A stretch of 64,000 nt of DNA from an uncultured Atribacterota bacterium (GTDB taxonomy: Bacteria > Atribacterota > Atribacteria > Atribacterales > Caldatribacteriaceae). How positions within the stretch are numbered: position 1 is the stretch's first letter; the number at the start of each line of letters is the position of its first letter. Under the pieces are notes generated by a model. It had not been told where the DNA came from. It did not search any database and was given only the letters and a program-made list of their open reading frames with translations. The stretch is taken from positions 56,155 through 120,154 of the forward strand of contig CAYRSB010000002.1 of NCBI GenBank assembly GCA_964426875.1, given 5' to 3'. The position numbers and the translations under genes are program-made. Below, in pieces: positions 4,464 to 17,352 of this stretch.

Positions 4464-4477
4464 AGTAGGAGGAAGTT

Positions 4478-5041
4478 GTGGAACAAATCCTCTTTGTTAT
4501 CCTCTTTTGCACGTGGGGAAGTATGGATTTCTACCTCTTTTTTCTCCGCCGCCCGAAGGAGCACATCTTTTTGGTTGAAAGGCGAAGTAAGTATGTGCTC
4601 CTTATCTTTGTCCTCTTTGGCCTTTTGGGGGGATTTGCCGTTGTACCAGGAACTGTGGAAGCTTTTCGAGAGCCCTTTTCTTCCTCCCGCTACCTTGCTT
4701 TCCTCTTCATGCCTTTGGGGATTGCCTTGCGAATAGTAGCAGTGCGCCAGCTGGGTCCTTGTTTCTCTATAGATTTGGGATTGAATCGGGAGGCGAGGCT
4801 CTATACTGGAGGCCTGTATTCCATTGTTCGTCATCCTTCCTACCTGGGAGAAATTCTTTTCTGCAGCGGCGTGGCCCTTGCCTTGCATCACCCTGTGGCA
4901 TCACTGCTTGCCTTTTTTCTGCCCCTTTTGGCTTTTCTCTACCGTGTCCGTCTGGAGGAGAAAATACTCCTTAAGATGCTAAAGGACGAGTACCTTCATT
5001 ACCTCAAAAGGACCTATTGCCTGGTTCCCTATCTCTACTGA
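4478..5041 (+). CDS. isoprenylcysteine carboxyl methyltransferase (ICMT)/phospholipid methyltransferase family membrane protein
   Basis: GTG start after AGGAGGA. Motif LYTGGLYSIVRHPSYLGEILF...RVRLEEKILL is typical of the ICMT family. Confidence 0.75.
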   Translation: MEQILFVILFCTWGSMDFYLFFLRRPKEHIFLVERRSKYVLLIFVLFGLLGGFAVVPGTVEAFREPFSSSRYLAFLFMPLGIALRIVAVRQLGPCFSIDLGLNREARLYTGGLYSIVRHPSYLGEILFCSGVALALHHPVASLLAFFLPLLAFLYRVRLEEKILLKMLKDEYLHYLKRTYCLVPYLY

Positions 5042-15061: not shown

Positions 15062-15247
15062 ATGAAGCTCACCATGAATACCAGGAGAGAAATTGTGCGG
15101 AAGATGGCACCAGAATACCAAAGAGCCACAAAGAGAGAAAAGAGAAAAATCTTGGATGAACTCATCCACCTCAAGGAAAAGCACCACAATGCTGACTTCT
15201 TCTGCTACATCGAAACTCCTGTCAGGAGCTCTAACTCAACCTTCTGA
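15062..15247 (+). mobile_element. N-terminal fragment (about 60 aa) of an rve/integrase-core type transposase
   Basis: MKLTMNTRREIVRKMAPEYQRATKREKRKILDELIHL matches the characteristic N-terminus (..RYRKASKKEKG.ILDEF..) of this transposase type. The frame collapses after about 40 aa, and a strong RBS (GGAGGAGG) precedes it. Confidence 0.6.
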
Positions 15248-15387
15248 GGACGGCCTTCTGAATTACTCTGAACCGATCCTTGACACCAAAATCCCTGTAA
15301 AGGTTCTCGGTAAGCGATCCTCTTGGGTAGTTGGTCTTCTCCTGAGTGACAAGGAACTTGGTGACGACAAGGAAGAACCGTTACGGG

Positions 15388-15558
15388 CTATGGAGGATCC
15401 TCGTCATCCAGCTCCTTCAGGAATTCAGATATCTCCTCAAGTTGCCACACCCTGCCGCATGGACATTCCCCTGCGTAGGTAGTTTGGTACTGCCCACCCA
15501 CAAGTTCAAGCTCGATTTGTCTTCCACAGAGGCATTTCAGGGATATTTTGGTGTCCAC
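15388..15558 (-). CDS. zinc-ribbon segment (CxC-17-CxC) with an acidic tail; probably the C-terminus of the upstream nuclease ORF
   Basis: (V)DTKISLKCLCGRQIELELVGGQYQTTYAGECPCGRVWQLEEISEFLKELDDEDPP. It begins 1 nt after the stop of ORF 15560-16126, and removing one G from the G5 run (15565-15569) fuses the two. Confidence 0.5.
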   Translation of the reverse strand: MDTKISLKCLCGRQIELELVGGQYQTTYAGECPCGRVWQLEEISEFLKELDDEDPP

Positions 15559-15559
15559 A

Positions 15560-16126
15560 TCAGTCCCCCTCTTTTGGCCCAAGCCGGAACCGTTCCCAGA
15601 GTTCATTGAAAGAGTACTCCTTAGAATTGTTGAGGCCCTCAAAAGAGTAAGTGAAGCACCGTATCCCCAGAGTCCAGTACCCTTGCAGAACCTTTTTGGG
15701 AAAACTCCCGGCGATGAGGAATCCACCCAGGCACTCTTCTCCTATTTCCTCCATGTAGATCCTGAGCTGATCCACATCTTTACGTTGGACCCTATTCAGC
15801 TTCGTTTCTACGATGATCTTCCGGGAACGTCCTACTGGTGAGCGATCCTTGATGAGGATGTCGATGTATCCCTCGGAGAGAGCTTTTTCCCCGAGTACCT
15901 CAAAATCCTCAGCACGAAGATCTCCAAGACCGCTGAGGTCGAAGAACCTCTGGAGATTTTCCTTGCAAGAGAGATGCCTCCGGACAAGCGACTGGAGAAG
16001 AAACTCCCTGAAGGGAAAGTTCTCCGGGGTTGATCCAGGGGTTTTCTTCCAGGCAATATATGGGGTGAAGGTACTGCAGTTGTCAGTGGCAAAGCTTTTC
16101 ACAGGCTTACGATACAAATCCCCCAT
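15560..16126 (-). CDS. PD-(D/E)xK (Mrr-like) restriction-endonuclease-fold segment
   Basis: [10 protein letters not shown], 13 aa, [21 protein letters not shown] gives the D...ExK signature. The 5' end abuts ORF 16099-16539 at a G5 run. Confidence 0.6.
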
Positions 16127-16539
16127 CCGGGAAACTGCTTGAAGAGTGGTCTGATTAGCCTGGAAGTGAGTCTTGCGGTAGCCACCCCGAAGGAGTAGGT
16201 TCTCGGCACGTAGGCAAGTTCGGGTCGAACCATGGACTCCGTAAAATCACGGATTAGTTTCAGGCGAAGGCGAAAGGGGAAGTAATAGGTCTTTCCTGAC
16301 ATCTGGAATGTGACGGAAGGCCAGGGACCGATGATGTCAACACCTTTGAGGGCTTCCTTTTCCTCTACCCGGTAGAGATTGAAAACTCTGGCACCATAGA
16401 GGAAGGAAACAAAGTCGCCCTCCTCAATGTCCACAAAGGTCCACAGTCCATTAATGCTGTTGGTGAACCCGGCGAGAGCGTACTCGATGCAGAGTTCAAG
16501 ATTTACTCTATTTGCGACTGAGAGAAGGAAATAAGCCAT
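16099..16539 (-). CDS. PUA-superfamily (EVE/ASCH-like) domain segment, N-terminal part of the nuclease reading frame
   Basis: [61 protein letters not shown] follows the usual EVE/ASCH-like pattern. One extra G at 16120-16124 gives ...[15 protein letters not shown].... Confidence 0.45.
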
Positions 16540-16967
16540 GGGCTCTTTGGAATCTCAGGGTTCCCCTGCAATACACCGACGCCGAAGGAGCTTGGCCTCA
16601 ATCGCTGTCGTCCCCCCCCACCCACAAAGTAATCAAGCACGAGATCTCCAGTCTTAGAGTACTTGAGAATCACATTAAGGGGGATATAGGGAGACCAGTT
16701 CCCCCGATATCCTCCATGGTGTGTGGCCCAGTCTCCTCGCTGAGGATAACTCCAGACCGTGGTTGTTTCCTTCCGGAAATCCTTTGGCTCCCAGGAAGTA
16801 ATGCGCCAGGGACGTCCGAGTGTCGAAATGTTCACTCCGTACGTCTCGGTGATGATACGCTCAAGTTGCCGGAAAGTGATCCCGAATATTTCTCCAATCC
16901 GGGCATCGGGAAGTCCAGATTTCTTTGCTTCGAGAACGGCTTTCCGGAAGGTTTCTTCTCCATGCAC
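16503..16967 (-). pseudogene. truncated and frameshifted N6/N4 DNA methyltransferase (HTH plus motif I only)
   Basis: TTVWSYPQRGDWATHHGGYRGNWSPYIPLNVILKYSKTGDLVLDYFVGGG is followed by a G8 run. With G9 the frame reads GGGTTAIEAKLLRRRCIAGEP-stop (AdoMet motif I). No (D/N/S)PP(Y/F) catalytic motif is present. Confidence 0.65.
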
Positions 16968-17002
16968 CTCCCGGAGGTGTTTCTCTCTTGGTGTTCTCCC
17001 TT

Positions 17003-17352
17003 TTACACAAAAGAGCGTACACTACCAAATCGGGCATAACCCCCTATACTGACGAAGCGTGGCTCTTGCCCTCGAACATAGTTGTGGGAACTGATGTTTA
17101 CTGAGTGCACGAGGGGAAAGTTGGTGTGTCGAAAGAGGGGTTGAATTTCCCCCCAACAATCTTTCCCTCGAAATCCACAACCACCGTGTTCTCCCAAGAG
17201 AGAGTATCGTATGGGACACCACTTGGCTTGATAACCACAAGACTCTTCTCCCGATCGATACCACTCCCAGTTCCCCAGGCGGGAATCGTAAGACCTTAGC
17301 GAAAGAGTTCTCAATTTGTCTCCCAAACTTTCTGTTTAAGCTCTTCGAGCAT
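17003..17352 (-). pseudogene. araD: L-ribulose-5-phosphate 4-epimerase (AraD, class II aldolase family) pseudogene, 5' third only
   Basis: Minus-strand translation from ATG 17352 gives MLEELKQKVWETN*ELFR*GLTIPAWGTGSGIDREKSLVVIKPSGVPYDTLSWENTVVVDFEGKIVGGKFNPSFDTPTFP. It is collinear with E. coli AraD ([80 protein letters not shown]). It has two in-frame stops plus a frameshift and ends at the methylase fragment. Confidence 0.85.

Follow-up and report, generated by a model that had tools for sequence, protein, structure and literature searches.

NucS/EndoMS pairs an N-terminal base-recognition domain with its nuclease domain (5gke). In S. pneumoniae (Streptococcus pneumoniae), a methyl-dependent nuclease cassette (DpnI) and a methylase-containing restriction-modification cassette (DpnII) are alternatives at one locus and are swapped by homologous recombination. 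About half of the homologues of the modification-dependent restriction enzyme MspJI adjoin DNA methyltransferase (MTase) genes, and the authors of that work proposed that the methyltransferase gene becomes dispensable and gathers mutations (PMC2938202). Among modification-dependent enzymes that join a PUA domain to a nuclease, fewer than 6% were reported to lie near MTase genes (PMC6765204). EVE and YTH domains are proven sensors of modified bases in the EVE-HNH enzymes VcaM4I and TspA15I and in the YTH-like-McrB enzyme of Thermococcus gammatolerans (PMC7897488, PMC6765204, PMC12707154), and fusions of a YTH-like domain to a PD(D/E)XK nuclease were mentioned by Bell et al. (2020), who found them with an archaeal YTH query (PMC7641849). 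Here, we analyzed 64,000 nt from an uncultured Atribacterota bacterium (GenBank assembly GCA_964426875.1, contig CAYRSB010000002.1, positions 56,155 to 120,154 of the forward strand); this whole stretch is called the window, and positions are numbered from its first letter. On the minus strand at 15231-16986 lies a decayed cassette in four parts: a methylase stub, the pseudogene of a reader-nuclease, a zinc-ribbon gene and the 3' end of a gene that we call p185. We refer to the reader-nuclease gene as R, to the zinc-ribbon gene as Zn and to the truncated methylase remnant as M'; a composite is a locus in which R+Zn is accompanied by the ends of an MTase-p185 operon, and a native locus carries that operon uninterrupted. 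The R gene of the window is, in our estimation, probably a decayed gene for a modification-dependent restriction enzyme of the MspJI style. For annotation, the methylase stub, the split nuclease open reading frames (ORFs) and the small Zn ORF belong to one decayed cassette rather than to a three-domain protein. The parts of the cassette are as follows.

16543-16986, minus strand: methylase remnant M' of a helix-turn-helix (HTH) N6/N4 DNA methyltransferase, identified by PF01555, PADLOC MTase_II, tblastn and colinearity with the Ca. Caldatribacterium locus L005
16612-16619, minus strand: G8 run in methylase motif I, where the frame is lost; one further G would restore ...GGGGTTAIEAKLLRRRCIAGE
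15560-16539, minus strand: R pseudogene of 326 codons, ATG at 16539, stop at 15560-15562
16206-16207, minus strand: inactivating 1-nt deletion in R, GTG|CCGAG against GTG GCC GAG (V-A-E) in homologues
16105-16539, minus strand: PUA-superfamily (YTH/EVE-like) reader domain, residues 1 to ~145, predicted from an AlphaFold2 (AF2) model and Foldseek
15560-15955, minus strand: C-terminal PD-(D/E)xK nuclease domain, NucS/Mrr-like, predicted from sub-threshold profiles, sequence and fold
15860-15862, 15806-15808 and 15800-15802, minus strand: catalytic residues D (in YIDIL), E and K (both in VETK)
15388-15558, minus strand: separate zinc-ribbon gene of 56 codons, GTG at 15558, ORF intact
15231-15380, minus strand: dead 3' remnant of p185, last 49 codons and stop, ...QEKTNYPRGSLTENLYRDFGVKDRFRVIQKAVLRRLS*, with 71% identity by tblastn to the p135 ORF of locus L003

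The minus strand carries an ORF of 154 aa at 16503-16967, one of 146 aa at 16099-16539, one of 188 aa at 15560-16126 and a zinc-ribbon reading frame terminating at 15388. An earlier note on this DNA, made from its letters alone, read the last three as a single protein of about 385 aa broken by frameshifts in two G5 runs; such runs are present at 16120-16124 and 15565-15569. The three-part fusion is excluded. With the note's conceptual repair (383 residues) as the query for the R family, 933 protein clusters were matched, almost all of 320-330 residues and spanning no more than 84-85% of the query; of 14 aligned sequences, 13 terminate ahead of any zinc-ribbon-like part, and the intact homologues of ~325 residues end at ...RFRLEPKEGD, that is, at the window's own stop codon at 15560. 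Nor do the frameshifts lie in the G5 runs, both of which code for conserved residues: the run at 16120-16124 encodes a conserved Met-Gly-Asp, and the run at 15565-15569 is native coding sequence, since the homologues end exactly at the stop at 15560. The first two pieces are instead one 326-codon gene split by a single 1-nt deletion. In alignment with homologues, the window's frames for the two pieces switch at GTG|CCGAG, and one base inserted between 16206 and 16207 yields a protein of 326 residues that is 79% identical to its counterpart in Ca. Caldatribacterium (L005) and 77% identical to the relative P0001.

The deletion lies outside any homopolymer. We consider the lesion real, because three contigs of NCBI and Logan assemblies carry the same split products of 146 and 188 residues, a variant in ENA that differs by one residue carries the identical out-of-frame tail, and the window's R has the substitutions F108L and D129N, both at columns that are 100% conserved elsewhere among 192 relatives. 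Two substitutions at columns conserved to at least 98% is the highest count among the 192 sequences. Sequencing error as the cause of the frameshift was rejected on the strength of the split ORFs in the other assemblies and the frameshift in the ENA variant. The deletion is thus inherited and the enzyme in the window is dead; locally, this copy is a case of ordinary decay.

The structure of the gene product was modeled with AF2 on P0001, with 73 homologues in the input, and the model was confident (predicted local distance difference test, pLDDT, 91.9; predicted template-modeling score, pTM, 0.90). Foldseek comparison of the N-terminal domain (residues 1 to ~150) with the PDB gave, with probability 1.00, PH1033 (1wmm; E 2e-5, template-modeling (TM) score 0.65), the YTH domains of YTHDC1 and Mmi1 (TM 0.5-0.6) and the EVE domain of VcaM4I (6yex). 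The PUA-superfamily barrel that had been proposed for the first piece is therefore supported by the model and by these matches; residues 1-146 have no match in Pfam. Aligned sequences place the conserved residues W33, W73, F25, F46 and Y56 as candidates for a pocket in which the reader would hold a flipped modified base. The second piece likewise bears out its reading as a PD-(D/E)xK nuclease, with a conserved D...ExK and, for the C-terminal half, fold matches to EndoMS/NucS and to the nuclease domains of Can2 and Cap4. Conservation of the catalytic triad, which the earlier note had made a check on its reading, is nearly complete: E245 and K247 are present in 82 of 82 loci and D227 in 81, the lone exception being a D-to-E change in a copy that is likewise frameshifted. 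Profile matches of the nuclease piece stay below threshold in Pfam (NucS_C, PF01939, 19.6 bits against a cut-off of 24; NA-iREase1, PDDEXK_9 and Mrr_cat, the last at E 0.14), EndoMS/NucS matches the C-terminal domain by sequence at E 0.011-0.016, and the NCBIfam model for endonuclease NucS scores 24.9-30.9 bits against a cut-off of 216, so that the piece falls outside that family. The PADLOC search that had been suggested returned nothing for the nuclease. Over the whole chain, Foldseek gave loose matches to MspJI (4f0q) and AspBHI (4oc8) at TM 0.17-0.21 and 8-14% identity, the MspJI match having E 4.7e-5, TM 0.17 and 12% identity. By the structure model and the Foldseek matches, R joins a PUA-superfamily domain of the reader type to a PD-(D/E)xK nuclease. 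A reader joined to a nuclease is, as the earlier note held, the architecture typical of modification-dependent restriction, and MspJI, AspBHI and VcaM4I are among the structural matches. The note's remark that the architecture could not be named does not hold, as a PUA-like reader with a PD-(D/E)xK nuclease is a known modification-dependent class (PMC6765204). We found no paper on the R family in particular.

The family is widespread in Bacteria and Archaea, with 136 loci in species-representative genomes and 530 metagenome loci. Its hosts include Caldatribacterium, Dehalococcoidia, Caldicoprobacter, WOR-3, Planctomycetota, Archaeoglobi, Thermococci and Bathyarchaeia. The intact orthologues for which the earlier note proposed a search are the rule: in ~97% of the 162 R loci surveyed, R is one uninterrupted tblastn match. 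A profile search of 1.84 billion cluster representatives returned 242 clusters (at 50% identity), all with the R architecture or fragments of it, and among these the reader domain was found in no other architecture; a wider use of the domain was accordingly discarded. Viral contigs in IMG/VR held no relatives of R, and a viral origin was dropped for that reason.

Contrary to the earlier view that the zinc ribbon formed part of the nuclease polypeptide, the homologues of R end at the window's stop codon and are followed by small ORFs with starts of their own. In the window, Zn has its GTG start at 15558, with the Shine-Dalgarno sequence GAGGGGGA (15564-15571) 5 nt ahead of it, and its 56 codons are intact. 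The CxC...CxC pattern and the acidic tail described previously are present, and the spacing proved to be 20 residues (CxC-20-CxC) instead of 17. A homologous small ORF of 50-61 codons lies directly 3' of R in more than 20 loci, and the ratio of non-synonymous to synonymous substitution rates (dN/dS) of the Zn ORF is ~0.18. The nuclease does not depend strictly on Zn, because in L005 the Zn ORF is broken by a stop codon while R is intact. No family was found for Zn in Pfam or PADLOC. Small zinc-ribbon partners that are not mutually homologous recur beside R. In Caldicoprobacter (L001 5207-5989; L014; L036), R follows a 62-residue ORF with a four-Cys zinc ribbon and a 195-residue ORF, beside DUF1156/DUF499, and in two Dehalococcoidia loci (L022 2568-2753; L025 5749-5979) a different CxxC zinc-ribbon ORF stands immediately upstream of R.

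As had been proposed, the ORF upstream of R is the beginning of an N6/N4 MTase gene (PF01555, E 8.9e-10; PADLOC MTase_II, 1.4e-30, profile positions 5-82 of 249), with a weak HTH and motif I present and motif IV missing. The window's M' keeps ~19 nt of upstream homology, the GTG start at 16967 and residues ~6-127 alone (HTH, pre-motif-I region and motif I, DYFVGGGG), frameshifted; tblastn of M' to the MTase of L019 covers residues 6-127. Beyond this, a 12-nt relic GATTCCAAAGAG at 16543-16554 corresponds to MTase codons 217-220 (DSKE) and supplies the ribosome-binding region of R. The G8 homopolymer at 16612-16619 arose in the window lineage by substitutions within the motif I codons; the equivalent site in L005 is GGTGGAGGAG, in the context GGTGGAGGAG--TAACAG.

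On the other side of the cassette, downstream of the Zn ORF, the window codes for ...QEKTNYPRGSLTENLYRDFGVKDRFRVIQKAVLRRLS*, which matches the C-terminus of a 135-codon ORF (p135) that in L003 also stands after the Zn ORF. Used as a query, p135 of L003 retrieved 578 proteins, typically of 185 residues and 80-97% identical across phyla (the p185 family). In its own loci, p185 directly follows an HTH-N6/N4 MTase of 512-518 residues with a 4-nt overlap, as in these native operons:

L165, 2919-5558: native MTase-p185 operon
L168, 3466-5558: native MTase-p185 operon
L169, 3448-5558: native MTase-p185 operon

From gene order, we infer that the native pair would be a highly mobile type II restriction-modification operon with p185 as the restriction enzyme; p185 itself has no recognizable family or fold (AF2 pLDDT 78, no Foldseek match with E <0.4). 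The C-terminal ~215 residues of the native MTase look like a second, degenerate MTase-like domain. In L165, a 176-codon ORF (4469-4999) lies between the full-length MTase and p185, in the inter-gene position where R+Zn occurs elsewhere.

Comparison of composite with native DNA revealed two blocks of homology, the first from ~20 nt upstream of the MTase start to codon ~297 and the second from p185 codon 58 to its stop. Between them lie ~1162 nt (R+Zn) in the composites and ~1365 nt (MTase C-terminus and p185 N-terminus) in the natives, and in every R locus examined R+Zn stands in place of the last ~220 codons of the MTase and the first 57 codons of p185. The best-preserved M' (300 residues) aligns to residues 1-295 of the native 515-aa MTase at 75% identity and stops at ...GFWYEVS; it is devoid of the whole C-terminal domain and of the conserved strand NFLLLAHEYLxxFEKP, which is kept in the native 515-aa MTase and in the 338-aa form M2. 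The junctions are identical across all loci inspected, and the MTase C-terminal domain and p185 residues 1-57 were found in native loci only and in none of the 162 R loci. Because of this two-block alignment, the identical junctions and the missing ends, we conclude that R+Zn replaced the inner part of an MTase-p185 operon and that what is left of the disrupted operon is its two ends, the methylase stub and the p185 stub. As in a homing gene, the insertion site is fixed within conserved host genes, between MTase codon ~297 and p185 codon 58. The companionship of a truncated methylase, which the earlier note had taken for an oddity of the window, is the rule in the R family, the stub being the end of a separate operon.

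The methylase has decayed across the family while R has been kept. In the survey of 162 R loci, a trace of this MTase family was present in 47 and absent from 115, 21 of the latter having less than 400 nt of upstream sequence, too little to tell. Unbroken M' ORFs make up 11 of the 47 traces and the full-length 515-aa form none; the remaining traces are truncated to varying extents, frameshifted, or 3' relics. As far as linked genes go, R thus occurs without a full-length protecting methylase, and the classical type II pair of a nuclease beside an intact cognate MTase is seen neither in the window nor in the family. The window and L005 share exactly the same methylase remnant, residues ~6-127 and the 12-nt relic, and their homology is confined to window positions 15253-16986 (76.7% over 1746 nt). 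Between the two, R has a dN/dS of 0.14; since they diverged after the loss of motif IV, R has evidently been kept by selection without the methylase. Type II systems usually leave the reverse picture, an orphan methylase; the pattern seen here agrees with what was described for MspJI (PMC2938202).

The histories of M' and R are also decoupled. R of L019 and L017 is 95.7% identical and M' 61%; L142 and L101 show the reverse, with R at 60% and the M' stub at 88%, and across pairs of loci the identity of M' shows no correlation with that of R (r = -0.02). In a sliding window along L019 and L017, identity rises from 50-70% to 91-99% ~55 nt before the ATG of R and drops just past its stop. In a neighbor-joining tree, native methylases are interleaved with composite stubs, and in a p185 tree truncated forms are scattered among native ones, the latter tree being weak on its own with 118 very conserved residues. 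On these sequence comparisons, we conclude that homologous recombination exchanges R among diverged copies of the locus, with flanks that draw on the pool of native alleles. An ancestral cognate M-R operon that suffered nested deletions from a fixed end was considered and was abandoned in view of the native MTase(515)-p185 operon and of the separate histories of M' and R.

R is found beside other methylases as well. It follows N-terminal fragments of Dam-like methylases (KWAGGK, EPFVGGG) in L004 (7774-7974), L024 (5897-5986), L033 (3185-3238), L034 (2146-2367) and L100, and it directly precedes a Dam-like C-terminal half (Dam residues ~111-278) in L032 (1264-1770) and L044 (6977-7483). These fragments suggest further, independent landings in methylase genes. 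A single Dam-like gene split by R was sought and rejected, as no locus holds both halves; the N-terminal fragment upstream and the C-terminal half downstream occur in different loci. In L035 (988-2037), R is fused in frame to the first 19 codons of the methylase in its short form (MREITREEYLEFLKEHKSD), and 16-25 codons of that same methylase are left upstream of R in L050 and L052. In L002 (5138-6016), a beta-class MTase (DPPY ... DPFCGSC) cut in motif I is joined to the same short DSKE-like relic (TNSKESNTR) that stands ahead of R in the window lineage; two unrelated methylase genes have here been brought together by a secondary rearrangement. R stands before intact methylases of other classes in L048 and L067, and in a DUF1156/DUF499 defense neighborhood in L001, L014 and L036. 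In two archaeal loci (L012 1904-2089; L016 5789-5986), the DNA upstream of R resembles in translation the 3' terminus of a tRNA gene (PPSLGCWRPEFKSRRPH), which hints at integration beside a tRNA. Several methylase candidates were discarded on reading by eye: the 'NPPF methylases' convergent downstream of R in L058, L060, L061 and L066 resemble CysQ/inositol-monophosphatase, the motif-scan methylase of L042 looks like an RNA methylase of the THUMP type, and those of L016 and L043 are GC-rich noise.

In the window, the cassette is flanked by two features that the earlier note had called a truncated araD and a transposase stub.

17003-17340, minus strand: degenerate remains of the N-terminal part of an araD-like class II aldolase, abutting the cassette (PF00596, E 2.9e-10, profile positions 1-79 of 183)
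15062-15247, plus strand: 61-codon ORF, earlier called a transposase stub, antisense to the p185 remnant and overlapping its end

The aldolase piece is confirmed by its profile match. The transposase identity of ORF 15062-15247 has been dropped, as profile searches gave neither a transposase nor any other family and the window holds no second copy. In composition the cassette does not stand out, with a GC content of 0.51 against 0.50 for the window.

We favor the reading that intact members of the R family are solitary modification-dependent (type IV or MspJI-style) restriction enzymes. The reader domain would flip out a base and check it for methylation, and the nuclease domain would then cut foreign DNA that bears the mark. 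N6-methyladenine (m6A) or N4-methylcytosine (m4C) are our best guesses for that mark, given the YTH-like fold and the N6/N4 methylase context. The neighboring methylase would be unneeded as a partner and would decay, as has been proposed for MspJI. Several points weigh against this reading. A preference of the barrel for a modified over an unmodified base is a prediction from its fold, and the R family as such is absent from PADLOC, NCBIfam and Pfam. Methylase traces accompany R in ~30% of loci, as against the figure of less than 6% for PUA-nuclease enzymes (PMC6765204). In ten loci, an unbroken M' of 300 codons lies directly upstream and the Shine-Dalgarno sequence of R falls inside the final codons of M, a tight coupling that looks like that of a cognate M-R pair. 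Finally, in composites both M' and p135 show a low dN/dS of ~0.05 (M' 0.048). We attribute this last value to recent recombination with functional native alleles, since the flanks draw on these, although M' and p135 could alternatively still be functional; because recombination accounts for it, the low ratio was not accepted as proof of their function.

A bolder extension, which we hold to be rather unlikely but worth stating, makes R+Zn a recombination-borne 'restriction-modification-killer' cassette whose reader recognizes the N6/N4 mark of the methylase in the operon that it disrupts. The cassette would enter one fixed site in the widespread MTase-p185 operon, with deletion of essential ends of both genes, and would move between alleles by way of the retained methylase and p185 arms. 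If this were true, the host would become immune to re-invasion by the selfish MTase-p185 element and to the DNA of its carriers, and the defense would be aimed at restriction-modification systems and not at phages only.

An alternative that we regard as unlikely is that R is a conventional type II enzyme that displaced p185, with M' (residues 1-297) or some other methylase giving protection and the PUA-like domain recognizing an unmethylated target. The translational coupling of M' and R, the ten unbroken M' ORFs and the low dN/dS of M' noted above would all fit such a pair, as would the intact methylases of other classes after R in L048 and L067. Restriction-modification operons that regulate themselves typically have an HTH on the MTase, and the MTase here carries one. 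For a reader of unmodified DNA there is a precedent in LlaJI, a McrBC-like system (PMC12707154). Against all this, M' is without the conserved strand NFLLLAHEYLxxFEKP, about three quarters of the loci with a detectable M' have it broken or truncated, 115 of 162 loci bear no trace of it while R is intact, purifying selection on R persists past the loss of motif IV, and the two genes have had decoupled histories.

It is improbable, too, that R+Zn is a selfish homing-like cassette that cuts the uninterrupted MTase-p185 operon (or methylase-marked DNA) and spreads by repair, with defense a by-product at most. Fixed junctions within a highly mobile operon, p185 sequences 80-97% identical across phyla, sharp recombination breakpoints close around R, composite flanks interleaved with native alleles and fragments of other-class methylases that abut R elsewhere are what such a cassette might leave. 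However, about two thirds of the loci have no trace of the operon and yet keep R intact over deep divergence, which argues for a benefit at the level of the host. Additionally, R has diverged at synonymous sites (dS) among loci as much as the flanks have, so that signs of a recent sweep are absent bar single cases such as L017/L019; recombination footprints are seen but no conversion event was caught; and the insertion destroys host genes, unlike that of classical homing elements.

Less credible still is a NucS/EndoMS-like nuclease of repair or recombination whose barrel recognizes a flipped damaged or mismatched base. NucS/EndoMS proteins are the best sequence-level relatives of the C-terminal domain, and they likewise combine N-terminal base recognition with a nuclease domain. 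Yet the NucS score of 25-31 bits is far below the cut-off of 216, the N-terminal domain of R resembles YTH and EVE and not that of NucS, and R is patchy in distribution, horizontally transferred and located in restriction-modification wrecks, beside apparent tRNA genes and in the DUF1156/DUF499 defense neighborhood.

Short forms of 185-190 residues that start at the equivalent of Met139 make up 12 of the 150 best cluster representatives. Among the 50%-identity clusters, such forms (e.g., P0272, P0285, P0290, P0302 and P0319) resemble the window's 188-residue ORF; five of the sequences were inspected, and that ORF itself is among the five. This would mean either that copies disrupted at the N-terminus are frequent or that there is a short form with the nuclease alone. 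That the R gene of the window still functions, its frameshift being an assembly error or bypassed, or its 188-residue nuclease half working alone, can be put aside as highly improbable: a single frameshift, intact catalytic residues and the short forms speak for it, whereas the split ORFs on three NCBI and Logan contigs, the out-of-frame tail shared by the ENA variant, a deletion that is not in a homopolymer and F108L and D129N at invariant columns speak against it.

If the family is modification-dependent, as we favor, it would be a compact, thermophile-rich group with a YTH-like reader and ~930 clusters across Bacteria and Archaea, and could plausibly yield restriction enzymes that depend on m6A or m4C, of which few are available as reagents. 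An R gene that sits at fixed junctions, is shuffled by recombination and outlives the methylase is a concrete sequence-level example of an idea raised for MspJI, namely that restriction-modification loci give rise to methyl-dependent enzymes or are taken over by them, and the locus opens the possible conflict between such enzymes and restriction-modification systems to experiment. The R family and its nesting in the MTase-p185 operon are worth an experiment.

Among described systems, NucS/EndoMS is the closest to the C-terminal domain of R by sequence and by fold and shares with R the plan of N-terminal base recognition followed by a nuclease. Its scores are far under the thresholds, its N-terminal domain is different, and it has a housekeeping-type distribution, whereas R is mobile and patchy. 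The DpnI/DpnII locus, with its alternative cassettes swapped by recombination, is comparable, but differs in that R lies inside the remains of an operon, at fixed internal junctions and across many phyla. VcaM4I, TspA15I and the YTH-like-McrB enzyme of T. gammatolerans are comparable in the reader, as the N-terminal domain of R matches EVE (6yex) and YTH in fold; their effectors are HNH in the first two and a McrB GTPase in the third, in contrast to the fused PD-(D/E)xK domain of R, and no sequence similarity is detectable. The fusions of a YTH-like domain to PD(D/E)XK noted by Bell et al. (2020) share the domain combination of R, and the R family may be among them, but that paper gives no account of the R family, its operon context or its junctions (PMC7641849). 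The MspJI family, including AspBHI and LpnPI, shares with R the two-domain plan of a PUA-superfamily base-flipping reader and an Mrr-like nuclease with D...(Q/E)xK. It also shares the frequent adjacency of MTases that are apparently dispensable and decaying (PMC2938202). R has no sequence homology to these enzymes, the matches being at the level of the fold only. Their reader is SRA-like and that of R YTH/EVE-like, they exceed 400 residues and R has ~325, and their neighbors are 5-methylcytosine (5mC) methylases while those of R are of the N6/N4 type. Lastly, the methylase adjacent to R is the truncated end of another operon and not an intact gene.

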